Shown in pieces: positions 4,713 to 31,602 of a stretch of DNA of 41,844 nt (its first letter is position 1; each line of letters starts with the position of its first letter). Source of the stretch: an uncultured Syntrophobacterales bacterium (GTDB lineage Bacteria; Desulfobacterota; BSN033; WVXP01; G020346125); NCBI GenBank assembly GCA_964346935.1, contig CAYFXP010000278.1:1-41844 (forward strand). The letters run 5' to 3'. The position numbers were made by a program, and so were the translations under genes. The notes beneath the pieces are model-generated. The model ran no database searches. It was not told the origin of the DNA and was given only the letters and a program-made list of their open reading frames with translations.

Positions 4713-5891
4713 ATGACCAACTTAGAGGTGAAATTTGCGGGTGTGAAGATGCGCAATCCATTAATATTGGCTTCGGCGACTCCGAGTTGGGATGGTCAGA
4801 GATCAAATCGAGCTTGGAAAGCAGGGGCCGGCGGCGTTGTTCCCAAGAGTTTTGCACCACCGTCAAAATGGGAGAAGCATCCTCGCTGTGGTCGAATGAA
4901 ACTCGTTAAGCATGGAAAAAATCCGATTGGAATGGTGAATATTGAATTGTATACGACAATGACGCTGCGAGATTGGTTAGAGAGGGAATTAGATAAGGCC
5001 TATGAAGATGGTAGCACAATCATAGCAAGTGTCGTAGCCCATCCAAATTCTGAAGATACCGGAAGAAATGCGAAGATAATTGAGGATACGGGGAAAGTGG
5101 TTATGGTTGAGATTAATGTTTCTTGTCCTATGCCTGCAGACCAAGACAGGGTTGGTTTCCAGATGGGCAATGATCCTAACAGCTGCTTTGATCAAGTTAA
5201 AGCGGTAAAAAAAGCAGTGACACTTCCAGTTGGTATCAAGCTGAGCCCAACCACTCACAACATGGTGCCGATGGCTCTTGCAGCTGAACGGGCGGGGGCT
5301 GATTTTCTCACCATAGGAAATTCCATCCGTTCCTTTGCCGGAGTGGATATTTCAACGGGATTGCCGAAGCTGGCTGCATATGGTGGATACAGGGGTCCAG
5401 CCATTAAACCCATTACGCAACGCCATGTGTCAGAGGTAGCCAAGGCGGTAAGAATCCCGATCTCAGCGTGCGGAGGCATCACGAGCTGGGAGGACGTTAT
5501 AGAATATATTATGTTGGGATCAACAACGGTTCAGATATGTACCAGTATCATGTGGCACGGGTATGGGCATTTTCAAAAACTCTTAAGAGGTCTTTCAAAC
5601 TATATGGAATGTGAATCCCTCGATTCTTTGGAAAGCATTCGAGGGAAAACGTTGCGACATATTGTAACAATTGATGAGCTAGCTAAAAACCCACCAATGG
5701 TTGCCCGGGTGGATTCAGAGAAATGTATAAACCTGACCAAGGGTGGGTGCAAACGTTGCGAGAAGGTGTGTTTTTACGGGGCCATTGAATTCGCCCCGGC
5801 GCTTAGACTTCACGGGGGAAAATGTGATGGATGTGGGTTGTGCATGGAGATTTGTCCTGTTAAAGCACTAGAACTGGTTAGACCAAGCTAA
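4713..5891 (+). CDS. Dihydroorotate/dihydropyrimidine dehydrogenase-family flavoprotein (PreA-like) with a C-terminal 2x[4Fe-4S] ferredoxin domain
   Basis: TIM-barrel motifs: INVSCP, GIKLSP, GGYRGPAIKP and ACGGITSWEDV. C-terminal Cys motifs: CKRCEKVC and CDGCGLCMEICP. Confidence 0.75.
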   Translation: MTNLEVKFAGVKMRNPLILASATPSWDGQRSNRAWKAGAGGVVPKSFAPPSKWEKHPRCGRMKLVKHGKNPIGMVNIELYTTMTLRDWLERELDKAYEDGSTIIASVVAHPNSEDTGRNAKIIEDTGKVVMVEINVSCPMPADQDRVGFQMGNDPNSCFDQVKAVKKAVTLPVGIKLSPTTHNMVPMALAAERAGADFLTIGNSIRSFAGVDISTGLPKLAAYGGYRGPAIKPITQRHVSEVAKAVRIPISACGGITSWEDVIEYIMLGSTTVQICTSIMWHGYGHFQKLLRGLSNYMECESLDSLESIRGKTLRHIVTIDELAKNPPMVARVDSEKCINLTKGGCKRCEKVCFYGAIEFAPALRLHGGKCDGCGLCMEICPVKALELVRPS

Positions 5892-20331: not shown

Positions 20332-21612
20332 ATGGGCATGGATGAAGGCTTGAGAGAGCGCTTGATGATCGACTCCTCCGTCTTGGAGGAGTTGAATCGG
20401 TTCCTTCTAAAGCCGGACAATTACGCAGTCAATGCGGTGCTTGGGGTAGTGAAAAAATACGGAACTCCCGAGGAGATCAACGAGAAAGCGCGGGAGTCCC
20501 GGAAACTCCTCCATCTTTTCGGGCGGCTCCGTCAACTGAACTCTCCCTACTTAAAAGATCTGGAATGGCTAGTGGCAGAACGTGACCGTGGCGCTTTCAT
20601 CTCCATCGCCGATTTTCGCCGTAAAGTGGTTGGAGCTCGGGTTGAGGAGATGACCTTTGATGAAGAGCATGCCGTCACCCTGGAGATCAGTGCCTTTCAA
20701 TACTTTCCATGGCTTATTGCTGAGGCCAAACACGCCATCGAGCACCAGGAGGTCATCCCCGGTCGATACATCAGGGTCCGCAAAATGAAGGAACAGGAGG
20801 CCGATCAGGGGGATATCCTTGCCGTTGCCGCCGCGATGCAGATCGTTGGGGCCACTTACGTGGAAACCCTGGATACGAGGGGCACCGATGGATCCAACGT
20901 GCACCTGGGTGGGGCGGAGACCATCACAGGCTATTTCGGGGGGATTGGTCAACCCAATGAGCATGCGCTGAGATGGGTCGATGAATTCCTCTACTACTAC
21001 ACTGAATACGGTATCAGTCAGGTGCTGAACGTCAATCCCGGTACCGTACTTCTCGGTTACATCCTCCATAAGCTCGGAATTGATATGGAGTTTAAGATCT
21101 CGGTCTTCATGGGCAACGACAACCCTTACGCCCTGCTCTGGACCCTGATGGCCGCTCGGCTTTTCTCGCGGGAGGACGGCTCCACCCCCGTGGTTGGCTT
21201 CAACTTGAGCAACTCCGTTGACTCCCAGACCCTGAAGCTGAGCGGCGAGATTCGTAGGGAGCTGGGCCTTGAGGATCAGGTGCGGATTGAACACCACATC
21301 ACCGAAACCTGGAAGAGCATCGTCCGGCAGCCCTATGATCGGAGGGATGAATTGCTCGAGGTGGCCCCCAGCGTGCCCAATATCTCGGCCAAGCACGAAG
21401 GGGGAGATACTGATATTGAGCCAACGCGTAAACATCCCTCGGACATCCTCGATTATTTTCGAGACAAGGAGGATATCCTCACATCCGGCGACATGCCGCA
21501 CCTAGAGCAGAATTTCCTTGACAAGCATTCGGCAGTAAACCGGACTGCGCGGGCTCTAACGGAAAGGGGCCTGGGCTTTGTGGCGGCTTGGAACCTTCAT
21601 GCTAGGGATTAG
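20332..21612 (+). CDS. Conserved-looking hypothetical protein (426 aa), family not recognised
   Basis: Long ORF with AAGGAGG upstream (ATG 20332 or 20338) and protein-like composition. The 310-aa ORF on the opposite strand looks like a shadow ORF. Confidence 0.6.
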   Translation: MGMDEGLRERLMIDSSVLEELNRFLLKPDNYAVNAVLGVVKKYGTPEEINEKARESRKLLHLFGRLRQLNSPYLKDLEWLVAERDRGAFISIADFRRKVVGARVEEMTFDEEHAVTLEISAFQYFPWLIAEAKHAIEHQEVIPGRYIRVRKMKEQEADQGDILAVAAAMQIVGATYVETLDTRGTDGSNVHLGGAETITGYFGGIGQPNEHALRWVDEFLYYYTEYGISQVLNVNPGTVLLGYILHKLGIDMEFKISVFMGNDNPYALLWTLMAARLFSREDGSTPVVGFNLSNSVDSQTLKLSGEIRRELGLEDQVRIEHHITETWKSIVRQPYDRRDELLEVAPSVPNISAKHEGGDTDIEPTRKHPSDILDYFRDKEDILTSGDMPHLEQNFLDKHSAVNRTARALTERGLGFVAAWNLHARD

Positions 21613-21758: not shown

Positions 21759-22085
21759 ATGAAAGCTGATTCCAAAAAACTCATTGACATGGTTAATAAG
21801 GGCATGACCGCCGCGGAAATTAGGAAAGCGTTGGGCATTAAACCAAAGGCTCCGTTGAGGAGGATGTATTACGATGCTTTAGTTAAGGCTGGGAAGATTA
21901 GAGATATTGTGAGCGAAAGGCGAGTCAGGAAGGGACTACGTAAGAGAAGGACATTGACCATTGGTAAGAGAGGAACCATTCTTCTCAGTAAACCATTACT
22001 CGTAAATCAGCTTGGGTTTAAAGAAGGCGACAAGTTTAGCGTTACCAAGAGAAGAGATAGGATTGTCCTAAAGAGAACCGGATAA
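21759..22085 (+). CDS. Small basic protein with a C-terminal SpoVT/AbrB-like domain
   Basis: RBS AAAGGAGGG. C-terminal LLSKPLLVNQLGFKEGDKFSVTKRRDRIVLKR resembles the AbrB swapped-hairpin motif. Confidence 0.5.
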   Translation: MKADSKKLIDMVNKGMTAAEIRKALGIKPKAPLRRMYYDALVKAGKIRDIVSERRVRKGLRKRRTLTIGKRGTILLSKPLLVNQLGFKEGDKFSVTKRRDRIVLKRTG

Positions 22086-22225
22086 GAAAGAAGGTTTTGG
22101 ATCAATATTCCCTTGAAACGAGGGCTGTTGAGCCCAGGATTGGCATTATATTTGCTAATTTTTCAGTCGTCTTGGGGTAGTGAACCAGCATTTGTTTTTC
22201 TCGGTAATTCTCGAAGGAGGTTTAC

Positions 22226-22636
22226 ATGATGGGAAAGGATGATATCAAATCCGGCGAGTTGGAAGCCTTTCTGGGCAAGAATACCACGTTTGAGGGCAAG
22301 ATGATCTTTGAGGGAATAGCAAGGTTGGATGGCAAGTATCACGGGGAGATTTTCTCCGGGGATGCCCTGATTATCGGTGAGACAGCGACTGTCAACGCAG
22401 AGATCAAGGTCGGTACCCTCATCGTCGACGGAGAGGTGAGCGGAAACGTCTCCGCTGCTTCGAAAATAGAAATCCATTCCACTGGCAAGCTCCATGGAAA
22501 TATCATAGCCCCAACCCTGGTGATCGAAGAGGGTGGGTTTTTCGAGGGGAGCTGTAATATGGAGAAAGCAGCGCAGACAGCAGCAGAGCCGGAGGAAGAT
22601 AGCAAGAAGATCGTTGATTTCCGGGAAAATGTCTAG
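22226..22636 (+). CDS. Bactofilin-family cytoskeletal protein
   Basis: RBS GAAGGAGG. Repetitive beta-helix pattern ...FEGKMIFEGIARLDGKYHGEI...VNAEIKVGTLIVDGEVSGNV...IEIHSTGKLHGNIIAPTLVIEEGGFFEGSC. Confidence 0.8.
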   Translation: MMGKDDIKSGELEAFLGKNTTFEGKMIFEGIARLDGKYHGEIFSGDALIIGETATVNAEIKVGTLIVDGEVSGNVSAASKIEIHSTGKLHGNIIAPTLVIEEGGFFEGSCNMEKAAQTAAEPEEDSKKIVDFRENV

Positions 22637-22814
22637 TATGCCCGCCAGGCCCAGTTACCCCCTGAGCTTAGACTTCGACAGTTCTAGCTAGTCCAAAGAA
22701 ATCTCAACCGAGGGTCTATTTTCCGCTACCTATAGCTCGCTTAGATGGGTTGCCCTGCCCCTTCCTTCCTGCGACCATCCCGGCAAAAGCTGGTAGATAG
22801 CCGTCAAAATATAT

Positions 22815-22839
22815 CCCCCTCGATTCCAACATGAGGGGG
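22815..22839 (+). terminator. GC-rich hairpin just upstream of the consensus promoter (possible insulator or terminator)
   Basis: ccccctc (22815-21) pairs with gaggggg (22833-39), followed by cATTTGATTG. Confidence 0.3.
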
Positions 22840-22846
22840 CATTTGA

Positions 22847-22875
22847 TTGACAGACGACCCCCTTTCCCCTATAAT
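22847..22875 (+). promoter_or_regulatory. Perfect consensus sigma-70 promoter TTGACA-17 nt-TATAAT
   Basis: TTGACA at 22847-52, a spacer of exactly 17 nt and TATAAT at 22870-75. The predicted TSS is around 22882. Confidence 0.6.
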
Positions 22876-22890
22876 CGCGCTATTCAAAAA

Positions 22891-22959
22891 ATGGCAAATA
22901 TTGACCGCTGTCCGCCGTCTGCGGTCGGCCGCGTTTGGCATTTGGATTTTGGAATTTGA
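22891..22959 (+). CDS. Mini-ORF 1 (22 aa: MANIDRCPPSAVGRVWHLDFGI). Candidate precursor or leader/arrest peptide.
   Basis: The ATG lies about 9 nt after the predicted TSS, and the stop is 6 nt before the DUF885 ATG. Both termini are homologous to mini-ORF 2. No Shine-Dalgarno sequence. Confidence 0.4.
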   Translation: MANIDRCPPSAVGRVWHLDFGI

Positions 22960-22965
22960 CATTAC

Positions 22966-24579
22966 ATGACAAGGCCTCTCCATGCAATAGCCAGCGATTA
23001 CCTTAACTACATGGGAAGGCATTTTCCCCAGCAGTGCCTCAGTGATGAGTTCTATTTCCTTCCCCGCTCCGAAGCCGCCGTTCAATATTCAGGCAATTTA
23101 GACGATCTCACCCCGGAGGGAATTCAGGGTCATATTCGATATGTACGAAACCTGTTAGGTGAAATTCCGCCCGGAACAGGAGATGACCTGGAGGGAGAAA
23201 TAGATGGTCTCTTCCTCAAGCAGAGCATGGAAAGCTTTATCAGGGAATACGCTGATGCAGAGGGCTGGCGAAATGACCCCACCATCTATATTAAAATACC
23301 CCTCTTTGCAACGGATGGGGTTCTTTCCCAGCAAGATAGTGCAGAAGAAGTGAAGTTAAATCTCTCGACCCTTTTTGCCCAAATCCCCCGCTTTCTCGAT
23401 TTGGCTGCCAAAAATCTCCGTACTCCCTCTGAGATTTCTCTCCAGGTGGCGCTGAATATGGTTCAGGACGCTTTACAATTCCACATGCGCGATATCAGGG
23501 CCTATATTGAGGAAAGGGTCGCAGGGAACGGGGAGCTTCTTGAGAGAAATCAAAGGGTAGAGGAAGCATGGAACGGATATAAAAGGGAGTTGGTTCAACT
23601 GCCGTCTCGGAAGTCGTTCGCCATCGGCGGAAACGGGCTCAAGAAAATCATTGATATCAGCCTGGGTTACCCCAAATCCCTTGAAGAAATCCGAGAGATC
23701 GCCCAATATGCTCATCGGGAGACTCAAGAGAAGATCCGTGAACGTGCCAGGGAGATCGATAGCCGCAAGAGCTGGAAACACATCATATATGAGGATTTTC
23801 CCTCAGTATCTTCCCCTGAAGAAGTGATGCAACTGTATCGGCGGGAGGTTGAGAACCTCCGGCGATTCTTTTACGCACATGACATCATTCCCTTTCCTCC
23901 TGGGGAGGAGGTTGCGGTCCTCCAAACCCCATCTTACCTGCAATCCCTCAGGGCCACAGCTTCGTACAGAGCCCCTTCAACCGGTAACACCAAAAGTCCT
24001 GGTATATTCTACATTACCCCGGGAAAGATGGATTTACGGTTGATCTCCGGCCATTCTCCCTATCTCTGCGCCCATGAGACGTATCCCGGTCACCACATTT
24101 TGGATCATCTTCGGATTCATCATGCGAAATCGATTCGCCGTCAGATCGAATCACCTCTCTTTTACGAGGGATGGGCGTCTTACGCCGAGCAACTATTGGA
24201 TGAGCTGGGATACGTCCAGGATCCACGGAAACAGCTTGTCCTGTTAAAACGCCAGCTATGGCGTAATCTGAGGGCTATGCTGGATATAGAGCTTCAGACT
24301 GGCAGCATGCCCGTAGCCCAAGCAGCCGCGAAGATCGAAAAGCTTGGATTTTCCCCACGGAGGGCCCAACGTCAGGTTCGCCGTTTTGCCCTCACCCCCG
24401 GGTATCAACTGTGCTATTTCATGGGAAATCACGAGATCATCGGGTTGCGGCAACGATTTTCTCCCGATTTGGCGCTAAAAACCTTTCATGATGTTCTTTT
24501 GGACGGAGGCCAGATCCCTTTTCATCTTGCTGAGAGAAGACTAGAAGCCAGGTTAAGAATGTCAAATGACAATTATTGA
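22966..24579 (+). CDS. DUF885-family protein (putative metallopeptidase-like, HExxPGHH motif)
   Basis: 537 aa. Motif CAHETYPGHH at nt 24073-24096, followed by ...FYEGWASYAE..., typical of DUF885. Confidence 0.7.
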   Translation: MTRPLHAIASDYLNYMGRHFPQQCLSDEFYFLPRSEAAVQYSGNLDDLTPEGIQGHIRYVRNLLGEIPPGTGDDLEGEIDGLFLKQSMESFIREYADAEGWRNDPTIYIKIPLFATDGVLSQQDSAEEVKLNLSTLFAQIPRFLDLAAKNLRTPSEISLQVALNMVQDALQFHMRDIRAYIEERVAGNGELLERNQRVEEAWNGYKRELVQLPSRKSFAIGGNGLKKIIDISLGYPKSLEEIREIAQYAHRETQEKIRERAREIDSRKSWKHIIYEDFPSVSSPEEVMQLYRREVENLRRFFYAHDIIPFPPGEEVAVLQTPSYLQSLRATASYRAPSTGNTKSPGIFYITPGKMDLRLISGHSPYLCAHETYPGHHILDHLRIHHAKSIRRQIESPLFYEGWASYAEQLLDELGYVQDPRKQLVLLKRQLWRNLRAMLDIELQTGSMPVAQAAAKIEKLGFSPRRAQRQVRRFALTPGYQLCYFMGNHEIIGLRQRFSPDLALKTFHDVLLDGGQIPFHLAERRLEARLRMSNDNY

Positions 24580-24664
24580 CCGCTCTTCCCCGACTCGACT
24601 GAGCTCGTTGTGGCCGTTTGCAGGGGTCTTCCTTTACATTTGGCATTTGCATTTTGATATTTGA
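24566..24664 (+). CDS. Mini-ORF 2 (32 aa: MTIIDRSSPTRLSSLWPFAGVFLYIWHLHFDI). Paralogue of mini-ORF 1.
   Basis: Overlaps the last 14 nt of the DUF885 gene in another frame. It shares M-x-x-I-D-R-(C/S)-x-P-(S/T) and (V/I)-W-H-L-x-F-x-I-stop with mini-ORF 1. Confidence 0.4.
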   Translation: MTIIDRSSPTRLSSLWPFAGVFLYIWHLHFDI

Positions 24665-24676
24665 AATTCCCGCAGG

Positions 24677-24698
24677 GTTTTGGCATTTGAAATTCCCC
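24677..24698 (+). repeat. Partial third copy of the TTTGGCATTTG...AAATTCCC unit
   Basis: GTTTTGGCATTTGAAATTCCCC equals the 3' end of mini-ORF 2 (TTTGGCATTTG[CATTTTGATATTTG]AAATTCCC) with the bracketed 14 nt missing. Confidence 0.6.
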
Positions 24699-24729
24699 AG
24701 TGAAATATCTGCTCCCTGAGGAAAGATGA

Positions 24730-26121
24730 ATGAGAACGGTTAACGGGTATCATGTGGAATGGAATCTGGGCTGTCCGGGTGGGTGGGAATACCAGAGGAT
24801 GGCCCAGGAACGTGGAAGGCTTTGTTGGGACAGGGTCAAGAAAGCCTCAGGAACAGAGATCGAACTGACCTTCGACCACCCTTTTTTAAACCCGGTTCCA
24901 CGTTTTTTGGATATGTTATTGCGAGCCCACGAGACTAGGTTCCCTGGGGAGAGACCATTCGTTCTCATTGTAGCGGAGAAAGAAACCCTGGATAAGGTGA
25001 CGGAGAATATTAATATCGTGGAGTACCTGAACCGGATGGAGAGGGTAAGGGCCGCACTAACGTGCCCTGAGGAGGTGGAAAAGAGGGAAGATCATGTTAC
25101 CTACAGGGGGCAGAAGGTAACCGTGGCCTTTCTGGATATTACGAACGATGTTCTTTTGAGAATAGGAACAAAGCATAATATTGAACCCCTATTGACCGCG
25201 ATCAGGAAGGGGATTGTGGTAAATCCCAGGGGAATGGAACCTATTGGTGCCAAGGGGATCTTCGAGATTGTGACAGGAGAGTTACGCCCCCTTCTCTCAC
25301 CTTCCACCGTAAACCATACCCCTTGGACTCGCCTATTTTATCCACGAACGACCACGGGACCGAATGGGGAATTGATCCCTGATTTGGTGAAATGGGTGGG
25401 AGACCATTGGCGGGAAGTCATACTCAAACCCGTTTATGGTTATTCTGGTAAGGGCGTATTTGTAGGAGCTCAGAGAGAATCCAAGGATGAAGATATTCAG
25501 AAGGCCCTGGAGGTGGAGCCTTATATTGTTCAGTCTTTTATACCGAAAGGGCTTTGGGCGGAGGAGTATCCATGGCTGGATATCCAGAGGGAAGAGATAA
25601 TTCTGAAGCAATGGCAAACAGACTTCCGTTGCTATATCAACGATACAGGGCTAATCGGTTTTTTGGCCCGTTTCGGGAAGATACCCACTAACGTGGGTGC
25701 AGGAGGTGGTGGTCAGAGCGTGGCTATTCTCAAGGCGGGAACCTCGGTTAGAGAAGCGGCGCACCGAATTAACGAAGCAATTATTGGATTGGGGTATTCC
25801 AGGGCCATGGAGATTCAGCGAGAGGTGGACAAAAAGGGGTTAGAATTGGGGCATACCTACCTTAAGGGTCCAACGCCCACCACCCTGAGACCACGGATTA
25901 TTACCCAAAACCACCTAACGTTTTTGCAGGAATACAGCGTCAACCTCTGGGGCGATTTATTAAAACTTGAGAAAATGTGGCAGGAGGGTAGATTGGACCA
26001 TGTGGTTCGGCTGGGTAAGGGCGAGGCGGAGATTGCTCGGATGCAGCCATGGGGAGGTTCACCAGCATTAATCGCCTCGGATGGTCTCTTTAGCTTCGGG
26101 GCCCATCTCCGGGGTGGGTAA
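24730..26121 (+). CDS. ATP-grasp-fold amidoligase-like protein, paralogue A (glutathionylspermidine-synthase / circularly-permuted-ATP-grasp-like)
   Basis: RBS GAGGA. Motifs: VVNPRGMEPIGAKG, HTPWTR, ILKPVYGYSGKGVFVG and WQTDFRCYI...ARFGKIPTNVGAGGGGQSVAIL (ATP-grasp C-terminal-like). The exact family was not verified. Confidence 0.6.
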   Translation: MRTVNGYHVEWNLGCPGGWEYQRMAQERGRLCWDRVKKASGTEIELTFDHPFLNPVPRFLDMLLRAHETRFPGERPFVLIVAEKETLDKVTENINIVEYLNRMERVRAALTCPEEVEKREDHVTYRGQKVTVAFLDITNDVLLRIGTKHNIEPLLTAIRKGIVVNPRGMEPIGAKGIFEIVTGELRPLLSPSTVNHTPWTRLFYPRTTTGPNGELIPDLVKWVGDHWREVILKPVYGYSGKGVFVGAQRESKDEDIQKALEVEPYIVQSFIPKGLWAEEYPWLDIQREEIILKQWQTDFRCYINDTGLIGFLARFGKIPTNVGAGGGGQSVAILKAGTSVREAAHRINEAIIGLGYSRAMEIQREVDKKGLELGHTYLKGPTPTTLRPRIITQNHLTFLQEYSVNLWGDLLKLEKMWQEGRLDHVVRLGKGEAEIARMQPWGGSPALIASDGLFSFGAHLRGG

Positions 26122-26214
26122 GAGTGGATACGATCACCAAAGAAGTCATTCAGGAGAAAAAGAGCCGACCGGGTATCGTTCACCAATTATCAACTAATTT
26201 CAAGGGATTAAGGA

Positions 26215-27609
26215 ATGAGAACGGTTAAGGGATATCATGGCGAGTGGAACATGGGTAGCCCCGGGGGGTGGGACTATCAGCGTATTGCGCAGCTCTTGGG
26301 GAAAATGGCGTGGGATTTGGTTTTGGAGAACATTGAGGTTGGAGTTGATATCGATCTCCAACACCCCCAGATAAATGCAGTGCCTGGGTTTGCGCGGATG
26401 ATGATACGAGCTCACGAGAGGTGCCATGGGATGAATCCGGTGCACGCGGTACTGCTGGCAGAAACGGAGACCCTTGACGTCGTGCTCGAGAACAAGAACT
26501 TCGTGGATTACTTGAATACGCTCGAAGGCGTAAAAGCTTCCCTGGCCGGGCCGAGTCACCTCTCACTAAGGAACGGGAAGGTATACTGCAGGGGAGAGGA
26601 AGCTACGGTTATTTTCATGGACTTCAACGCGGATAACCTGGGCAAGATCGCCGAGAAAGAGGACGTGAAACCCATCAAGGAGGCCGTCAGGCAGGGGATC
26701 CTGGTGAATCCCCGCGGAATGGAACCCCTCGGTGCCAAAGGGCTATTTGAGGTAATCAGTGAGCGGTACCGGGACGAGTTGAGCGAGGATATGCTAAAAC
26801 ATACGCCATGGACCCGACAATTTTATCCCAGAAGCACTACCGGTCCAAAGGGAGAGCCCATTGAAAACCTGGTTTCCTGGACTGAAGAGCACTGGGAAGA
26901 TGTAGTCCTTAAACCCGCACATGGGTACTCGGGCCACGGTATATTCGGAGGGTACAAAAAAGGGAATCCCAAGGACCACATTAAAACGGCCTTGCATGCA
27001 GGCGACTACATTCTCCAGCAACTCATTCCCTTGGGGCTTTGGTCGGAACAGAGCGTTTGGGCCATCCCGGAAGAGGAGTGCCTGGTTCTTAAGGAGTGGC
27101 AGACCGATTTCCGCTGTTTCATAACGGATGAGGGGCTTCAGGGGTTTCTGGCTCGCTTTGGTGGCATTCCCACCAACGTGGGCTCAGGCGGGGGGGTCCA
27201 ACCTATTGCTCTCTTAAGGAGCAATATGACTCCGCGGGCTGCAGTGGATAAGATTAACGAAGCTCTGTTTAAGTTGGGCTATGGGGCTTTTGCAGAGATC
27301 CAGAATGAGGTCAACCGAAAGGCGATTGAAATGGGCTTCACGTATCTTCTGGGCCCGATAATGATCACGCTCAGGCCCAGATTATTGACCGTTGATCACT
27401 TCGAAGACCTGAGACAATATGCTCGTAATCTATGGCACGATGCGATTAAACTGGAGGAACACTGGCGCAGGGGGCAACTAGACGACGTTCTCCGGGTGGC
27501 GGAAGAGGAGAGGAAGTTGGCCCTCGAGCAACCCTGGCGAGGGAGTCCCGCCCTTATGGTTTCCGACGGCCTTTTCAGCTTCGGCGCGGACTTGATGATT
27601 GGGGAATAG
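26215..27609 (+). CDS. ATP-grasp-fold amidoligase-like protein, paralogue B
   Basis: Colinear with paralogue A along the whole length. 30 of the first 60 residues are identical, counted by eye. Same motifs: LVNPRGMEPLGAKG, HTPWTR, VLKPAHGYSGHGIFGG and WQTDFRCFI...ARFGGIPTNVGSGGGVQPIALL. Confidence 0.6.
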   Translation: MRTVKGYHGEWNMGSPGGWDYQRIAQLLGKMAWDLVLENIEVGVDIDLQHPQINAVPGFARMMIRAHERCHGMNPVHAVLLAETETLDVVLENKNFVDYLNTLEGVKASLAGPSHLSLRNGKVYCRGEEATVIFMDFNADNLGKIAEKEDVKPIKEAVRQGILVNPRGMEPLGAKGLFEVISERYRDELSEDMLKHTPWTRQFYPRSTTGPKGEPIENLVSWTEEHWEDVVLKPAHGYSGHGIFGGYKKGNPKDHIKTALHAGDYILQQLIPLGLWSEQSVWAIPEEECLVLKEWQTDFRCFITDEGLQGFLARFGGIPTNVGSGGGVQPIALLRSNMTPRAAVDKINEALFKLGYGAFAEIQNEVNRKAIEMGFTYLLGPIMITLRPRLLTVDHFEDLRQYARNLWHDAIKLEEHWRRGQLDDVLRVAEEERKLALEQPWRGSPALMVSDGLFSFGADLMIGE

Positions 27610-27612
27610 GAA

Positions 27613-28389
27613 ATGGAAAAGGTAGATCGTGACTGGTGGAAGACGCTTTTCGATGAAACGTACCTGATCACCGATGCCCGCACGGTATGCGATGAAGGAT
27701 TGACCTGCGGAGAAGTGGATTTTATGGAGCGGGCCCTTAAGTTGAAGAGATGCTGGCCCATCCTTGATCTCTGCGGGGGGCAAGGACGACATTCCCTGGA
27801 ACTTTCCCGCCGGGGTTTTCAGAATGTGACTGTCCTGGATTACTCCAAGGTTCTCATCGCCCTCGGGAGGGAAATGGCCCGGAAGGAGGGCCTTAATACC
27901 CTGTTTATGCGGAGGGATGCCCGGAAGACAGGCCTTCCCGGTCAGAGGTTCAAGGTTATCATCGTCATGGCCAGCTCCTTCGGCTATTTCGCCGATGAAG
28001 GTGAGAATGAGAAGATCCTTCGAGAGGCGTTTCGGTTACTCAAACCGAAGGGATCTCTCTTCTTGGACCTGCCCCATCGGGAGTACGTATTGAAGAATTT
28101 CAGCCCTCAATCCTGGCATGAAGCCAATGAGGAGATCGTGGTCTGCCGGAAAAGGAGCTTGGATGAAGATATTGTGTACGGTCGGGAGATGGTTATCTCC
28201 AAAATGAGGGGTATGATCCGGGATTCAACATACTGCACCCGCCTCTATAGCCCAGAGAAGATCACAAAAATGCTGAGCTCAGCGGGTTTTGCTTCCGTTG
28301 TGATTCAAAAGGACTTCGTTTCCCATGGGGAAGAAGGGGACTATGGGCTCATGACAAATCGTATGATCGTGATTGCTGACAAGAAGTAA
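27613..28389 (+). CDS. Class I SAM-dependent methyltransferase
   Basis: The start is 3 nt after the upstream stop. Motif I ILDLCGGQGRHSLEL, with post-I LDYS and LLKPKGSLFL. Confidence 0.8.
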   Translation: MEKVDRDWWKTLFDETYLITDARTVCDEGLTCGEVDFMERALKLKRCWPILDLCGGQGRHSLELSRRGFQNVTVLDYSKVLIALGREMARKEGLNTLFMRRDARKTGLPGQRFKVIIVMASSFGYFADEGENEKILREAFRLLKPKGSLFLDLPHREYVLKNFSPQSWHEANEEIVVCRKRSLDEDIVYGREMVISKMRGMIRDSTYCTRLYSPEKITKMLSSAGFASVVIQKDFVSHGEEGDYGLMTNRMIVIADKK

Positions 28390-28451
28390 CATGTTCCCTA
28401 GCGAAATCGGTCCACCTTCGTAGTTCCCACGATTCCAATGAGATAGATAAA

Positions 28452-29285
28452 ATGGCCACCCGTATCCAAATAGTATCCCATGAGGAGGTCGAGGAGGGAT
28501 TCTTAACCCGGATTCGAACGTGGGCCAGCGAGGTCTTGGAGAGGGCAGGGTTCCTGTCTCCGTCTAATCCTCTGTGCATAACGATTTGGGGGACCGTAAA
28601 GAAGCTGCAGGCCTTTTACCGCGAGGAAAAGGAGGCCCTCGGTGTTGTTACAGGAGAGGAAATGGATTTCTTGGCCACCCACGATGCGTGGAGGGGCTAT
28701 CCTAGGATTCACATCTGTCAAGAAAGGCTGAAGGGAATCCCCGACGTCATCGTTCAGGGCGTTGTTCATCACGAGATCAGCCATGCCCTGTACCATGGCA
28801 CCCCTGAATACTACACCTTCCGATTCTCAAGCAGGCTCCAGGAGGTGGGACGTTCCCATGGTCTGGACCTACCCCTCCTGCAGCAATTCGTCTACTTGCT
28901 GTCCGTGGCTATCAAAGATCGGGAGGTAGTCCAATGGCTTGCCACAATAGGACTTGGTTTCAGCCAGGTGGCCCTTCTTGAGCACCTCATGTATGATATT
29001 GAAGAGGAGCGGCGGATCTGGGAGGTATTTCGCGGCTCTCCTCCCCTGAGGAAGATAGCCTTCGCATCTTTCCTCAAGACCCTGCTGCCCATTGAGGCCA
29101 TGATTTCGGCCGGAATCGAGGATGGCGAAGCCCTCAGGAATCAATGGGATAAAGCCTACGGATGGCTTTCCCAAAACGAGCGGAAAGATCTCTTCCGATT
29201 GGCGCAATGGATCATGAATCACGAAGGGGAGACATTTCAAGGGCGATTGGAACAGGCAGTTCTTCGGCTTATCAGCGGCTGTTGA
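28452..29285 (+). CDS. Hypothetical protein with a zincin-type HExxH motif (putative metallopeptidase)
   Basis: GVVHHEISHALYH, with HEISH at nt 28770-28784. I recognise no family. It is the last gene of the operon and is convergent with the GMC gene. Confidence 0.5.
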   Translation: MATRIQIVSHEEVEEGFLTRIRTWASEVLERAGFLSPSNPLCITIWGTVKKLQAFYREEKEALGVVTGEEMDFLATHDAWRGYPRIHICQERLKGIPDVIVQGVVHHEISHALYHGTPEYYTFRFSSRLQEVGRSHGLDLPLLQQFVYLLSVAIKDREVVQWLATIGLGFSQVALLEHLMYDIEEERRIWEVFRGSPPLRKIAFASFLKTLLPIEAMISAGIEDGEALRNQWDKAYGWLSQNERKDLFRLAQWIMNHEGETFQGRLEQAVLRLISGC

Positions 29286-29307
29286 GAGGTGGGTATCAGG
29301 CCCCTTT

Positions 29308-30759
29308 TCATCGCAGTATGGCATCCATAGCCTTTTCCGCAACGGCCGCAACAGTCAAGGCAGGGCCTACAACTGTGGCACTGGGAAGGACGCTTGCATC
29401 AATAACGTGGAGGTCGGGATTATTCTTAACCTCCAGGATTATGGGATCCACCACTGATCCCATCTTGCAGCCCCCGATAGGGTGTGCGGTGTAAAGCCTT
29501 CCCGTTAGGTCATAGTCGGTAACACCGACGTCCGCTTCCATCTCCCTGAACGTATCCTTTAACTTCTCATAGACTGGGGAAATTGTGTAGCTGCTGGACT
29601 TCCGGACCGCCACATTACCCTTAGAATCCAAGTCGATGCTTATATTCCCCTGATCCATGGAGATAACGGCTAGCATGAGAAGCCGGCCTCCATAGTTTTT
29701 CAGTGTCTGCTTATACTCCTTCCCCCAGAACTGCGGTGGCTCCGTAAGTGATTCGAAGGTCCCCTTATACTTAACCGCCGGTCCGATGGGAGGTACGTGC
29801 ATATCCACGATAATAAAGTCCCCGCGGGTCTCCCGGCAAATTCTGCTCATTGGCCTTCCCACGTGGGTACTAACATCCGTTCCCTCTGGCAGGATTCCCC
29901 CGACGGGAATATCGCCATTTCCGGATATCCCCTGTCCCAGATCCTTATCTGGAAACGAATTGAGGAATGGTTTCGAACGCATCAATAGGGCTGGCGACTC
30001 GGGGCATCCCGCTGCAATTACTACCTTCTTTGCCCAGATGGAATTGTCCGGCCAACCTGTGATGAGATGATAATCGCGATTAACTGACGTGGTGCGGCGA
30101 TAGTAAACCTTGTAACCCTTAAAGGCCTTTGTGACAAAAAGAGCCTTGCAGCGTTCTGCAAAGATTGCCCCAGCTCTTTCAGCCTCGAGAATGTATGATC
30201 GAGCCATATCCATCTTCGCGCCGAATGTGCACCCCATGGTACACCACCCGCATTCTTTGCAGTCCACACTTCCCACTGCTAAATTTCTCAAAACCAAATC
30301 GCTGAGGCCCAAATTCATGCATACTTCGTCCATAACCCATGCCCGTGGGGGTGTGGAATCAGGCTCATGCACATTGAGATTAAACTCCACCCTCCCATAA
30401 CAACCGGTCAAGTTCTCTGGATGATAATCGTATGGCCATTTGTCAAAAACCGGATGATTTTTCCAGACATCCTCTGGTATTCGTTCCAGAATCCCGCAAT
30501 AGACAAGGCTTGTTCCTCCGATGCCCATACCTTGGGTAATTACTACAGGGCTCAGTTCAATTAAATAACTGGACGGATAATCACGGTAAAGTCGCGCGAT
30601 ATATTTTGGATCTTGGGTCCGCTCGAAATCATCGGTTGACCACCTCTCTCCCATCTCCAAGACCACGACTTCTTTGCCAGATTGCGCAAACCTGAGCGCA
30701 GCAATGGAACCTCCAAATCCAGACCCAATTATTACCACATCAGCGCATTTAGATTTCAT
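29308..30759 (-). CDS. GMC-family FAD-dependent oxidoreductase (large subunit)
   Basis: Rossmann motif DVVIIGSGFGGS. C-terminal GMC active-site region AHPIGGCKMG...LHVIDASVLP. ATG 30759 was chosen because it sits just downstream of the small-subunit stop and after GAGGGGGG; the longer ORF from 30855 would overlap that gene. Confidence 0.8.
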   Translation of the reverse strand: MKSKCADVVIIGSGFGGSIAALRFAQSGKEVVVLEMGERWSTDDFERTQDPKYIARLYRDYPSSYLIELSPVVITQGMGIGGTSLVYCGILERIPEDVWKNHPVFDKWPYDYHPENLTGCYGRVEFNLNVHEPDSTPPRAWVMDEVCMNLGLSDLVLRNLAVGSVDCKECGWCTMGCTFGAKMDMARSYILEAERAGAIFAERCKALFVTKAFKGYKVYYRRTTSVNRDYHLITGWPDNSIWAKKVVIAAGCPESPALLMRSKPFLNSFPDKDLGQGISGNGDIPVGGILPEGTDVSTHVGRPMSRICRETRGDFIIVDMHVPPIGPAVKYKGTFESLTEPPQFWGKEYKQTLKNYGGRLLMLAVISMDQGNISIDLDSKGNVAVRKSSSYTISPVYEKLKDTFREMEADVGVTDYDLTGRLYTAHPIGGCKMGSVVDPIILEVKNNPDLHVIDASVLPSATVVGPALTVAAVAEKAMDAILR

Positions 30760-30766
30760 ACGCAGA

Positions 30767-31336
30767 TCACCCCCCCTCATTTTCCAGGGGTTTTTCCCAC
30801 CATTCGTAGGGGAATCCCACGTAATCAGTTCCAACCCTGTTGATGACCCCCCCAAAGAAGGCTATTTTGGCCACGTTGATGGTCATCCGATAGGCAGGGG
30901 AGAGAATTCCCCAAGGGCCACCGCGAACCTCTCGGTCCAGAAGGGCCTCCTCCCGATCCTCGCAATCCAGATCGATAAACCTCTTTCGGTATCGGAGGTA
31001 GCAAAAACAATCAATGTCCCAGGTAATGGAGGGAATAAAAGGCCTCACTTCGTAAAATGGATCCTTTATGAGTTCCCAGGCACCGGCCTTGACAGCTCCT
31101 GGCTTCCATTTCCATTCGCCGTCTTCCAATTCGAGGGTAGGAGGTACCACGGTATCGGCAATGCATTCCATGGTTTTCTGTTGATGTTGAGTAAGACAGT
31201 CTGAGGTACCCAATGATTGAGGAGTCTCAGGTACCGTACCGATTCCTATAGCTGTACCTCCGGCGATGATTCCGCCCCTTCCAGCCTTCTTTAAGAAATC
31301 CCTTCTCGTGATCTTACTCGTCAGTTTATCTGGCAT
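30767..31336 (-). CDS. Tat-signal small subunit (gluconate 2-dehydrogenase subunit 3-like)
   Basis: Twin-arginine signal TRRDFLKKAGRGGIIAGG, RBS GGAGGG, located immediately upstream of the GMC gene. Confidence 0.65.
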   Translation of the reverse strand: MPDKLTSKITRRDFLKKAGRGGIIAGGTAIGIGTVPETPQSLGTSDCLTQHQQKTMECIADTVVPPTLELEDGEWKWKPGAVKAGAWELIKDPFYEVRPFIPSITWDIDCFCYLRYRKRFIDLDCEDREEALLDREVRGGPWGILSPAYRMTINVAKIAFFGGVINRVGTDYVGFPYEWWEKPLENEGG

Positions 31337-31602
31337 TTCTTACCCTCCGATTTCATATGATGTCGGTACGAGACCAACCTCAGACTCTACTCCCACAGGG
31401 GGATGTTCCACCCCTTGAAAAGCTAACAGTATGAGCAACACCATCGTAGCATACTTCGGAATTCTGTCAAATGAGGTTCCCGTGACTTAAGTTCCCTCTG
31501 AATGAGAACTGGGGGGCCATTGGTTTTGGATTTTCAGGGAACTCCCCTTTGACAGGACGGGTCTAATTCAGTTGGGAGAAGCTTGGCCATGCTTTTTCCT
31601 TA

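Follow-up and report, generated by a model that had tools for sequence, protein, structure and literature searches.

A DUF885, ligase and methyltransferase gene trio of anaerobes that may act on a small metabolite, with repeat-derived mini-ORFs in a Syntrophobacterales operon

The question raised by this locus is whether a compact operon, found in 41,844 nucleotides of DNA from an uncultured Syntrophobacterales bacterium (the window, meaning this whole stretch), modifies a ribosomal peptide or a small metabolite. A preliminary description had favored a RiPP or peptide-tagging system, in which two mini-ORFs with a common WHLxFxI ending would supply the precursor or tag peptides for two peptidases, two ligases and a methyltransferase. 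The promoter and the five large genes, all closely spaced on the + strand, are as follows:

22847..22875, + strand: sigma-70-type promoter, TTGACA-17 nt-TATAAT, the sole 12/12 match within 22000-31500
22966..24579, + strand: DUF885 zinc-hydrolase-like protein, 537 aa (Pfam PF05960, E 1.7e-54), first gene of the trio
24730..26121, + strand: ligase A, 463 aa, a divergent, circularly permuted ATP-grasp-type carboxylate-amine ligase by its motifs and predicted fold
26215..27609, + strand: ligase B, 464 aa, a paralogue of A (50% identical, all invariant columns in common)
27613..28389, + strand: NmbA-like class I SAM-dependent methyltransferase (Methyltransf_25, E 7e-17), third gene of the trio
28452..29285, + strand: orphan protein with an HHExxHxxxH motif (HHEISH), 277 aa, a same-strand neighbor

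The perfect promoter was found again, and four relatives (L006, L084, L005 and L087) keep its -35, its -10 and the following CGCGCTAT. The gaps of 3 nt between the ligase B and methyltransferase genes and of 6 nt between mini-ORF 1 and the DUF885 gene were likewise reproduced. The genes are a single compact operon, described as strongly promoted, in which, as had been proposed, the predicted promoter is followed by genes for a protein of a metallopeptidase clan, for ligases of the ATP-grasp type and for a SAM methyltransferase.

The conservation of this gene set was analyzed through the ligase, of which 412 relatives were found when one genome per species was considered; 81 homologous loci were fetched in this way and their neighborhoods were analyzed. 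The ligase family was present in 79 of them, DUF885 in 63 and the methyltransferase in 60, and the next commonest neighbor family in 12. The full order DUF885-ligase-methyltransferase was observed in 54 of the 81 loci, the genes often being separated by 0-20 nt or overlapping. Complete trios were detected in Thermodesulfobacteriota, Omnitrophota, Planctomycetota/Brocadiales and Elusimicrobiota, and a Bathyarchaeia MAG (L036) carried only the ligase and the methyltransferase; the core enzymes thus recur in five phyla of anaerobes, the fifth without DUF885. The same-strand immediate neighbors were heterogeneous (71 Pfam families, each in at most 2 of 42 proteins), and the flanking genes of the trio varied between loci, giving no independent hint of the substrate. 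No description of this enzyme combination was found, and the trio, strongly co-conserved between phyla, appears to be undescribed so far.

The expectation that all five large genes would travel together was not borne out, as only DUF885, the ligase and the methyltransferase recur together. The HExxH protein matched nothing in Pfam, NCBIfam or the PDB, and its 430 homologues, all without an assigned name, keep the motif invariant. Its AF2 model (pLDDT 86.6) gave as best Foldseek match the YbeY-like AQ_1354, at an E value of only 0.09. This gene was absent from all 81 loci fetched via the ligase; L085 and L087 are the only loci in which it comes after the trio, and in L086 it lies apart from it. 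It is a lineage-specific neighbor outside the conserved module. Ligase A is also lineage-specific, an additional paralogue: the tandem of A and B was only present in the window, L006, L058, L009, L011 and L087. In most Desulfobacterota loci it is the paralogue ligase B that fills the ligase slot of the trio (DUF885-ligase B-methyltransferase in 21 loci), and in six ligase B loci, most of them with full flanks, neither DUF885 nor the methyltransferase was found nearby.

The two mini-ORFs do exist as open frames ahead of the first and second large genes, ending in WHLDFGI* (to 22959) and WHLHFDI* (to 24664), respectively. Each one is contained in a larger repeat element:

22886..22963, no strand assigned: heptamer-repeat element 1, in the 5' leader, containing mini-ORF 1 (22891-22959)
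24556..24699, no strand assigned: heptamer-repeat element 2, in the DUF885 3' end and the DUF885-ligase spacer, containing mini-ORF 2 (24566-24664)

Element 1 is built from a reverse-type arm AAAATGGCAAATATTGA, a core rich in GC (CCGCTGTCCGCCGTCTGCGGTCGGCCGCG) and the forward array TTTGGCA TTTGGAT TTTGGAA TTTGACA. Element 2 has the same parts, namely a reverse-type arm (AATGTCAAATGACAATTATTGA), which forms the last codons of DUF885, a GC-rich core and a forward array TTTGGCA TTTGCAT TTTGATA TTTGAAA, with a further TTTGGCATTTGAAATT. The homology claimed for the two peptides was traced to the DNA: positions 22889-22920 and 24564-24595 are 81% similar, positions 22934-22963 and 24639-24668 are 87% similar, and the WHLxFxI ending common to both results from translating a tandem heptamer array, (TTTGNNA)n. 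Five matches to (TTTGNNA)x3 were observed, versus 0.13 expected by chance. Such arrays are found on either strand and form inverted pairs flanking GC-rich cores. They lie in the intergenic DNA of many related genomes, including regions of unrelated gene context; L058 and L085 carry them on both strands.

Furthermore, the length and the frame of the arrays differ even in the nearest relative, L087. Mini-ORF 1 is intact only in this near-identical locus and absent in L006, L084, L005 and L085, the first two of which keep the promoter with no such mini-ORF. In L087, element 2 is shorter by about 80 nt (an indel) and mini-ORF 2 lacks the WHLxFxI* end; in L005, whose ligase is 86% identical, about 20 nt separate DUF885 from the ligase and element 2 is absent. 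Among ORFs of 18-90 aa within 700 nt of the trio in the 81 loci, none was conserved across clades. In a Syntrophobacterales-type clade, small ORFs for an FmdB-like zinc ribbon and for a small membrane protein are conserved, both clade-specific and in variable orientation. A heptamer-repeat intergenic element has colonized the leader and the DUF885-ligase spacer, and the two mini-ORFs are copies of it. We place high confidence in two points, that these frames are artefacts of repeat DNA and that the conserved core consists of the three genes of the module.

These results bear directly on the proposed RiPP or peptide-tagging role, which needed the mini-ORFs as conserved precursor genes and is unsupported because they are not. 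Their loss or disruption at homologous loci is an outcome that the preliminary description had itself named as counter-evidence. Both frames are open just upstream of large genes, mini-ORF 1 survives in L087, and a daptide RiPP methyltransferase model weakly matches the window methyltransferase (32.6 bits, cut-off 175). However, the shared motif is a DNA array of 7-nt period, many loci leave no space between DUF885 and the ligase, and neither the HExxH protein nor the second ligase belongs to the conserved module. The sole in-transcript ATG of mini-ORF 1 is some 8 nt away from the start predicted for the transcript, and no Shine-Dalgarno sequence was seen for it by eye. In addition, the nearest characterized relatives of the ligase and of the methyltransferase act on small molecules. 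This role is hence considered extremely improbable.

The heptamer elements might instead be functional cis-regulatory RNA or DNA, such as hairpins that make mRNA stability or translation differ between DUF885 and the ligases, or length-variable tuning tracts, and not neutral insertions. Their two positions are shared by the window and L087, arrays recur in operon spacers of L058, L085, L014/L015 and Syntrophobacterales-type loci, the inverted arms pair in predicted folds, and the DUF885 start codon directly follows an array with no obvious ribosome-binding site. Nevertheless, fold energies were no better than those of shuffled sequence (z -0.43 for element 1, whose fold pairs its two arms, and +0.53 and -1.03), the same arrays appear at unrelated intergenic sites, and many trio loci are entirely devoid of them. 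An Rfam search of element 1 gave no match. A regulatory function is conceivable but, on balance, doubtful.

As the mini-ORFs are only translated repeat DNA, a small-metabolite pathway looks likelier than a peptide-modification system. The profile searches suggested earlier succeeded for DUF885 and the methyltransferase, which match Pfam, and not for the ligases, which stayed below all Pfam and NCBIfam cut-offs. The DUF885 protein scored 186.8 bits against PF05960 (cut-off 32.4) with the motif HETYPGHH, and it has relatives in the PDB (3o0y, 3u24 and 3iuk). Conservation of AHEtyPGHH and of EGW..Y.E reaches 95% or more in 52 trio-linked DUF885 homologues. No hydrophobic signal-like segment was seen at its N-terminus by eye. 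DUF885 belongs to the Peptidase_MA clan, with HExxH...E intact, and this membership would agree no less well with peptides or proteins as substrates.

The tandem arrangement and the paralogy of the two ligases were borne out, and the label "ATP-grasp" rests on motifs and predicted fold because no profile reached its cut-off. The AF2 model of ligase A (pLDDT 85.4) gave homoglutathione and glutathione synthetases as top Foldseek matches (E 1e-5 to 1e-4, TM 0.36-0.44), followed by E. coli GshB, synapsin and YgiC/YjfC. The modest TM values count against a small-molecule reading. The invariant residues, in A numbering, include E10-x-N12...P16GG, K233-P, D298-x-R300 and R314...N321-x-G-x-GGG, and the catalytic motifs are conserved in the homologues, including both window copies. 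We read the invariant KP..G..G, DxR, R...N.G.GGG and N-terminal ExN...PGG as compatible with a permuted GshB/RimK-type active site. The only PDB profile match was 3n6x, a "putative glutathionylspermidine synthase", at E 0.54. Distant sequence relatives showed sub-threshold CP_ATPgrasp_2 matches, and the window ligases themselves had no CP_ATPgrasp match in the Pfam search. Ligase identity between phyla is very high, about 50-55%, which could hint at a macromolecular partner.

The best PDB match of the methyltransferase was 9ri2 (CtNmbA), with an E value of 1.2e-22; the two are 30% identical along 226 residues that take in the cap region, and the second-best match reached only E 9e-10. The homologues of the methyltransferase retain the SAM-binding motif. 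NmbA is the bacillithiol N-methyltransferase, an enzyme that methylates bacillithiol on the amino group of its cysteine, and its authors defined homologues by 35% identity (PMC12719100), a threshold above the 30% found here. The window methyltransferase is probably N-directed.

Taken together, we give an even chance to the operon core being a self-contained module whose substrate is a small metabolite derived from amino acids rather than a ribosomal peptide. In the substrate class and order of steps that we infer, the ligase would join a carboxylate to an amine with ATP, yielding a dipeptide-like or glutathione-like amide, and the methyltransferase would then methylate a free amino group of this product. 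DUF885 may cleave an amide bond of the same scaffold, either supplying the amine or carboxylate substrate or turning the product over; glutathionylspermidine synthetase/amidase, where an amidase domain accompanies a synthetase, would be a precedent. The two most plausible product classes are perhaps a low-molecular-weight thiol and a methylated osmolyte.

The same enzymes could also work on a protein terminus, with DUF885 as an exopeptidase that trims the protein, the ligase re-adding amino acids and the methyltransferase capping the end. Comparable activities exist, since RimK adds amino acids to ribosomal protein S6 and tubulin tyrosine ligase counteracts carboxypeptidases. The clan and intact motif of DUF885, the weak ligase matches to RimK, MptN and GshB profiles, and the unusual conservation of the ligase between phyla would agree with such a cycle; the structural class of NmbA includes peptide N-terminal methyltransferases such as CypM, and a universal protein target would need no further dedicated genes. 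Nevertheless, the RimK score was 17 bits against a cut-off of 143, the top structural matches of the ligase are small-molecule ligases, the top methyltransferase match is a small-molecule enzyme, and no linked candidate target gene was found in the 81 loci. This cycle is regarded as unlikely. Even less likely, by a clear step, is a carrier-assisted amino-acid chemistry. Here the ligase would load an amino acid onto the terminus of a small carrier peptide whose gene lies elsewhere, the load would be modified by the methyltransferase, and DUF885 would release the product and regenerate the carrier. Systems of the LysW/LysX/LysK and "pearlin" types follow the logic of ligase, tailoring enzyme and metallohydrolase, which the trio matches, and the trio is compact and mobile; on the other hand, no conserved gene for a small carrier was found close to it in any clade, the conserved small ORFs being clade-specific, and the ligase belongs to neither the LysX nor the RimK family.

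Several known systems resemble parts of this locus. STRR, the short tandem heptamer repeats of cyanobacteria, and intergenic repeats of the REP/BIME type share with the elements described here tandem 7-nt units, intergenic position in both orientations, inverted arrays often around a GC-rich core, and apparently many sites per genome, also within operons; the unit TTTGNNA and the host phyla differ. ATP-grasp RiPP systems such as the graspetides, as well as RimK-type C-terminal ligation, are comparable in that a single operon unites ATP-grasp chemistry with a peptidase and a methyltransferase, whereas the trio lacks a conserved precursor or target gene and family membership, and its structural neighbors are small-molecule ligases. 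The NAGGN osmolyte cluster, which makes a modified dipeptide compatible solute with the ATP-grasp dipeptide ligase Ngg, AsnO and an M42 peptidase of unclear role, is also a small cluster with an ATP-grasp ligase and a metallopeptidase. Its enzyme families are different and its tailoring is acetylation and amidation, not methylation.

Among ligases, the CP_ATPgrasp_1 and CP_ATPgrasp_2 families have a different domain order, ligase residues 52-335 aligning to about 180-470 of the distant relatives that show sub-threshold CP_ATPgrasp_2 matches. In glutathionylspermidine synthetase/amidase (GspSA) and its homologues YgiC and YjfC, the latter two being among the Foldseek matches, a ligase likewise goes together with a hydrolase that targets the same type of amide linkage, although the GspSA hydrolase is a CHAP-type cysteine amidase domain and here it is the separate zinc enzyme DUF885. 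Glutathione synthetases (GshB, eukaryotic GS and homoglutathione synthetase) provide the top structural matches (3kal, 5oes and 1gsa); eukaryotic GS is similar in length to the ligase, the ATP-grasp being permuted in both, and we presume the ligase loop motifs to be GshB-like. However, the ligase is only about 14% identical to them, it scores far under the cut-offs of the GSH-S_ATP and NCBIfam glutathione synthase models, and no glutamate-cysteine ligase was found in the immediate trio neighbors.

Finally, the N-methyl-bacillithiol pathway (BshA, BshB and BshC, plus NmbA) differs in that the trio module has no BshA, BshB or BshC homologue, its hydrolase is DUF885 and not of the LmbE type, its ligase is of the ATP-grasp and not the BshC type, and its host phyla are outside those listed for N-methyl-bacillithiol. 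Nevertheless, CtNmbA is the closest relative of the methyltransferase among solved structures, and the logic of the pathway is comparable: a metal-dependent amide hydrolase, an amino-acid ligase and N-methylation of the added residue.

A compact and mobile module of three enzymes with intact active sites was found, consisting of a DUF885 zinc-hydrolase-like gene, an ATP-grasp-type ligase and an NmbA-like methyltransferase (MT), in that order (the trio). A ligase scan using one genome per species yielded 412 relatives; the 80 best-scoring loci among these, with flanks of 7 kb, were analyzed by tblastn and all-against-all ORF clustering. Among the 81 homologous loci of the ligase-based set (designated by L numbers), the ligase was present in 79, DUF885 in 63 and the MT in 60, while the next commonest family reached 12. 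The full order DUF885-ligase-MT was observed in 54 of the 81 loci, the exceptions being mostly contig ends, and the three genes were often overlapping or a few bases apart. The complete trio was detected in Thermodesulfobacteriota, Omnitrophota, Planctomycetota/Brocadiales and Elusimicrobiota, and L036, a Bathyarchaeia MAG, carried the ligase and the MT with no match to DUF885. Judged by their MAG labels, many carriers came from marine or hydrothermal sediment.

In the window, with a G+C content of about 50% and closest relatives among MAGs labelled Thermodesulfobacteriota or Syntrophobacterales, the trio was part of the following same-strand unit.

Features of the operon in the window
22847-22875, + strand: promoter TTGACA-17-TATAAT, the sole 12/12 match in 22000-31500
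22966-24579, + strand: DUF885 gene, full-length Pfam match (E 1.7e-54)
24730-26121, + strand: ligase A, 463 aa, paralogue of B
26215-27609, + strand: ligase B, 464 aa, paralogue of A
27613-28389, + strand: methyltransferase gene, matches to Methyltransf_25, Methyltransf_31 and Methyltransf_11
28452-29285, + strand: HExxH protein, 277 aa, HHEISH motif, no family match

The consensus promoter reported in the preliminary description was thus confirmed in all 12 positions, and the gaps quoted there (3 nt between ligase B and the MT, 6 nt between mini-ORF 1 and DUF885) were correct. The promoter and the downstream CGCGCTAT(T/C)C were near-identical in five genomes (window 22845-22885; L006:4460-4500; L084:5190-5230; L087:2445-2485; L005:~593-650), and the leaders beyond them were entirely different. 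A sigma-54 promoter at TTGGCATTTGCA was rejected by inspection, the GG-to-GC spacing being unlike TGGCAC-N5-TTGC. No obvious ribosome-binding site was seen by inspection at the DUF885 start codon in the window genome.

The nearest relative, L087, was syntenic throughout, from a bactofilin gene to a GMC oxidoreductase. This 515-aa GMC-type FAD oxidoreductase is convergent with the operon (29308-31336 region, - strand), and about 90 nt at its start are shared with the gene of a 189-aa protein that matches DUF5987 weakly and contains a twin-arginine-like motif, RRDFLKK; the pair is common to the window and L087. Upstream of the operon, a 426-aa protein with no Pfam or NCBIfam match (20332-21612) is followed by an AbrB/MazE-like protein of 108 aa (21759-22085), and this pair was also found upstream of the L084 trio, with 83% and 73% identity.

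The preliminary description had suggested checking the five-gene set for conservation in other genomes, and co-conservation was found for the trio (54/81 loci) but for neither of the other two members. The second ligase was restricted to the window's relatives, since the tandem of A and B was confined to L006, L058, L009, L011 and L087. Most Desulfobacterota loci had the B type only, and the other phyla had a third ligase type, equidistant from A and B. An alternative order (ligase A, divergent DUF885, third-type ligase, MT) was present at L012:7001-11420 and L013:2678-8410, and alternative arrangements were also seen in L007 and L041 (both CP070746.1), L039 and L044. Solitary ligases existed in some genomes, of A or B type and far from any DUF885 or MT gene, sometimes with two loci per genome.

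The HExxH protein was found in none of the 81 ligase loci. Its gene followed the trio only in L085 and L087 and was separate from it in L086; hence, it was considered a neighbor and not a member of the module. A bactofilin gene was near the HExxH gene in the window, L085, L086 and L087. No Pfam, NCBIfam or PDB sequence match was obtained for this protein, whose family comprised 430 members, all unnamed and none in Pfam, with H106-H107-E108-x-x-H111-x-x-x-H115 invariant. The best Foldseek match of its confident model (pLDDT 86.6) in the PDB was a YbeY-like metal hydrolase domain, which aligned with the N-terminal domain at only E 0.09, so that its reading as a second peptidase is tentative.

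The genes flanking the trio were unrelated between loci, and no recurrent cross-phylum neighbor was detected by ORF clustering of the 81 loci or when 42 adjacent proteins were compared with Pfam. GTP cyclohydrolase I genes (FolE at L003:2999-3807 and in three other Omnitrophota loci, FolE2 at L002:855-4616) and queuosine- or folate-related genes adjoined the trio in some loci. In Omnitrophota a shared 82-aa gene and FolE were convergent with the MT, which is probably clade synteny, and GTP cyclohydrolase I neighbors were discarded as a functional clue because they were limited to Omnitrophota. One Syntrophobacterales-type clade (L066, L067, L073, L076, L081 and L082) had four further genes near the trio. 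Two of these encode a TlpA-like thioredoxin and a rhodanese-domain protein similar to CoA-disulfide reductase, and the other two an FmdB-like zinc-ribbon protein and a small, 60-68-aa membrane protein. The thioredoxin-like and CoA-disulfide-reductase-like neighbors were likewise set aside as a functional clue, being present in one clade only, and the thiol/redox context that they provide is a weak, clade-limited hint.

The two mini-ORFs ending in WHLxFxI, which had been proposed as homologous peptide genes, were found to be translated repeat DNA and not substrate genes, as indicated by the DNA similarity of the heptamers, the loci of relatives and a search for small ORFs. They lie inside two heptamer-repeat elements, element 1 in the leader and element 2 in the DUF885-ligase spacer. 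The DNA similarity was 81% between 22889-22920 and 24564-24595 and 87% between 22934-22963 and 24639-24668, and a third partial copy was located at 24665-24694. The tandem heptamers of the 3′ block were, in one of the copies, TTTGGCA TTTGGAT TTTGGAA TTTGACA and, in the second, TTTGGCA TTTGCAT TTTGATA TTTGAAA. A period of 7 was assigned to 22934-22958 by Tandem Repeats Finder, and (TTTGNNA)x3 gave five matches in the window vs 0.13 expected. The ending W-H-L-x-F-x-I-stop is one reading frame of four TTTGNNA-type heptamers, so the shared terminus reflects similarity at the DNA level.

In each element a GC-rich core separated an arm in reverse orientation (AAATGNCAAWTATTGA) from a forward array, and copies differed by large indels. 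The reverse arm of element 2 encodes the final codons of DUF885, whose C-terminal tail differed in each close relative (RMSNDNY-stop, ...NDKFQMSNIKY-stop and others), the reverse heptamers supplying the last codons (window 24556-24579; L087:4150-4195; L058:1445-1520; L005:2535-2560). Repeat DNA has therefore been recruited into the DUF885 coding sequence.

In the relatives, the WHLxFxI ORFs were absent or disrupted in L005, L006, L084, L085 and L087. The spacer between DUF885 and the ligase was only about 20 nt in L005 (ligase 86% identical), and L006 and L084 kept the promoter and CGCGCTAT but had different leaders without any ORF of the mini-ORF 1 type. L085 carried forward as well as reverse arrays and lacked a WHL ORF. 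In L087, element 1 showed four substitutions relative to the window with mini-ORF 1 still open, whereas element 2 was about 80 nt shorter, with a core resembling that of element 1, and mini-ORF 2 terminated in ...IWHLNLIECLLPEEK-stop, not WHLHFDI-stop.

Arrays on both strands were observed in L008, L011, L014, L015, L038, L047, L058 and L066; most of them were located between unrelated genes, those of L058 in the DUF885-ligase spacer, and in the Syntrophobacterales-type loci arrays also occurred in the ligase-to-MT spacer. The inverted arrays of L008, L011, L038, L047 and L066 were intergenic and adjoined unrelated genes.

Repeat arrays in the homologous loci
L008:3790-3840; L011:850-1030; L015:6740-6960; L066:11210-11340: inverted TTTGNNA arrays around GC-rich cores
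L038:84-111, 5395-5415; L047:600-640, 830-860: inverted TTTGNNA arrays around GC-rich cores
L005:700-745, 860-885; L009:6770-6990: AAGGRTTC / GAACCCT-type arrays

The last of these are further short-period arrays that form inverted pairs within the operon's own leaders and spacers, examples being an 8-nt unit (AAGGRTTC and its complement) and GAACCCT-type units; hence, more than one repeat family is present. The heptamer elements look like a repeat family spread through the genomes of these Thermodesulfobacteriota and of L038 (labelled Omnitrophota). They resemble STRR/REP-like elements in having tandem 7-nt units, in their non-coding location and in occurring in both orientations at multiple unrelated sites. 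A riboswitch or other known RNA was discarded for the leader, since Rfam (E <= 1) returned only a spurious lncRNA match outside the element. Predicted RNA folds paired the inverted arms, but the fold energies were not better than those of shuffled sequence, and a stable RNA structure was rejected. The elements may affect mRNA stability or translation.

No small-ORF family (18-90 aa, up to 700 nt from the trio) was conserved across clades in the 81 loci. The small-ORF "families" recovered were translations of the promoter (e.g., PLSPIIALF) or of heptamer arrays, read from one strand or the other, and clade-specific small genes. The RiPP or peptide-tagging operon with the mini-ORFs as precursors, put forward in the preliminary description from the joint presence of ligase, methyltransferase, peptidase and short peptide genes, is accordingly without a conserved precursor gene in these loci, and the ligases gave no Pfam or NCBIfam match to the macrocyclizing MdnB/MdnC-like ATP-grasp enzymes expected of a graspetide pathway. 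This model was essentially refuted. A scheme with a carrier peptide is improbable, no linked peptide or carrier gene being found for the trio in the 81 loci. Short "conserved" ORFs beside biosynthetic genes in these genomes can thus be artefacts of heptamer repeats, and these repeats alter the C-terminal end of DUF885 too.

The ligases did not reach the cut-off of any Pfam or NCBIfam family, and none of their 1359 homologues in the protein collection had a Pfam domain, the names given by the sources being "hypothetical protein" throughout. The sub-threshold matches were to GSH-S_ATP and ATPgrasp_YheCD in Pfam and to glutathione synthase, MptN and RimK in NCBIfam, with scores of 17.2 bits vs a cut-off of 143.4 for RimK (TIGR00768), and of 16.3 vs 23 (PF02955), 17.2 vs 272 (NF003573) and 12.3 vs 299 (TIGR01380) for glutathione synthetase. 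CP_ATPgrasp_2 (PF14403) was not matched by the window ligases at E <= 0.01. When 1.8 billion representative proteins were searched with a profile, 58 reached E <= 1e-30, and a second tier of proteins of ~450-480 aa aligned with a domain offset; these distant relatives were the source of the sub-threshold matches to CP_ATPgrasp_2 (20-31 bits, cut-off 32). In the PDB, the single sequence found no match and the profile only 3n6x (E 0.54).

The AF2 model of the ligase (pLDDT 85.4, pTM 0.87) gave 18 Foldseek matches in the PDB at E <= 1e-3, all of them ATP-grasp enzymes. Soybean homoglutathione synthetase and potato glutathione synthetase led (E 1e-5 to 1e-4, probability 1.0, TM only 0.36-0.44), followed by E. 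coli GshB, synapsin and YgiC/YjfC, and the top 50 consisted of glutathione synthetases, GshB, synapsin, Ddl, YgiC/YjfC and PPIP5K. The invariant columns K233-P...S239-G-x-G, D298-F-R300, R314...N321-V-G-x-G-G-G and the N-terminal E10-W-N12...P16-G-G were all retained in A and B. On the pattern of GshB and RimK sequences, we take K233/S239-G-x-G to be the ATP-binding lysine and loop, D298-x-R300 the DxR strand, R314...N321 the R...N..GG loop and E10-x-N12...P16 the Mg-binding ExN..P(G) strand. Since this last strand is normally C-terminal in GshB/RimK-type enzymes and is N-terminal here, the ligase would be a circularly permuted ATP-grasp enzyme. Model and conserved columns together place the ligases in the ATP-grasp superfamily of carboxylate-amine ligases, with residue roles that we infer.

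The DUF885 protein matched PF05960 (clan Peptidase_MA) with 186.8 bits vs 32.4 over profile positions 13-531 of 532, and across 52 homologues linked to a trio the conservation of AHEtyPGHH and EGW..Y.E was 95% or higher. Its sequence therefore identifies it as a PF05960 member that keeps the HExxH motif and the downstream Glu. The N-terminus was not signal-peptide-like by inspection. The solved relatives 3o0y, 3u24 and 3iuk have no assigned function, and none is given for DUF885 in the searchable literature.

The MT was recognized as a class I SAM-dependent methyltransferase by Methyltransf_25 (62.4 bits vs 27), Methyltransf_11 (43.9 vs 21.2) and Methyltransf_31, and the SAM-binding motif iLDlcGG.GRH was conserved. 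The best PDB match was 9ri2 (E 1.2e-22, 226 aligned residues), 40 bits ahead of the next (E 9e-10), and the alignment of MT residues 6-235 with NmbA 14-242 included the N-terminal cap region; the 30% identity to CtNmbA lies below the 35% homologue threshold of the NmbA authors. 9ri2 is the NmbA of Chlorobaculum tepidum, which has been shown to methylate bacillithiol on the amino group of its cysteine (PMC12719100). Most structural neighbors of NmbA are N-directed methyltransferases, with small molecules and peptide N-termini as substrates, and the MT is probably N-directed as well. Peptide N-termini being among these substrates, a cycle at a protein terminus, with trimming, re-ligation and capping, can be envisaged, but it was judged unlikely.

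The enzyme types of the trio are familiar and their combination is not. Searches of the literature on NmbA or bacillithiol with ATP-grasp, and on permuted ATP-grasp with a methyltransferase and a peptidase, returned no account of the trio, and the database names were all "hypothetical protein", in agreement with the novelty claimed beforehand. The module would combine an enzyme that forms amide bonds (ATP-grasp) with one that hydrolyzes them (zincin) and a SAM-dependent methylation step. Because the nearest ligase structures and the nearest relative of the MT are small-molecule, low-molecular-weight-thiol enzymes, we infer, with about even confidence, that the trio acts on a small metabolite derived from amino acids. 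No firm choice was made between a thiol and a methylated osmolyte. A rather improbable, more specific proposal is that the trio serves the biosynthesis and turnover of a new N-methylated low-molecular-weight thiol in anaerobes, or of a comparable metabolite that is abundant and has a redox or osmotic role. The glutathione-synthetase-like ligase would attach an amino-acid moiety, and the NmbA-like enzyme would methylate the amine of that moiety, as in N-methyl-bacillithiol. The lineages concerned would be Planctomycetota/Brocadiales, Omnitrophota, many Thermodesulfobacteriota and Elusimicrobiota, for which no such thiol is documented or predicted. Hiras et al. (2018, PMC6282198) state that low-molecular-weight thiols are neither documented nor predicted in major lineages, Planctomycetes among them, and a new metabolite, if real, could fill this recognized gap.

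With the peptide-gene artefact removed, what remains is a robust, widespread and experimentally tractable pathway. Should the trio make a new metabolite, three "hypothetical" families would together acquire a function, including the first biochemical role for DUF885, and the module, being small, self-contained and strongly promoted, is directly testable by heterologous expression. A precedent for a ligase paired with a hydrolase of the same bond is glutathionylspermidine synthetase/amidase.
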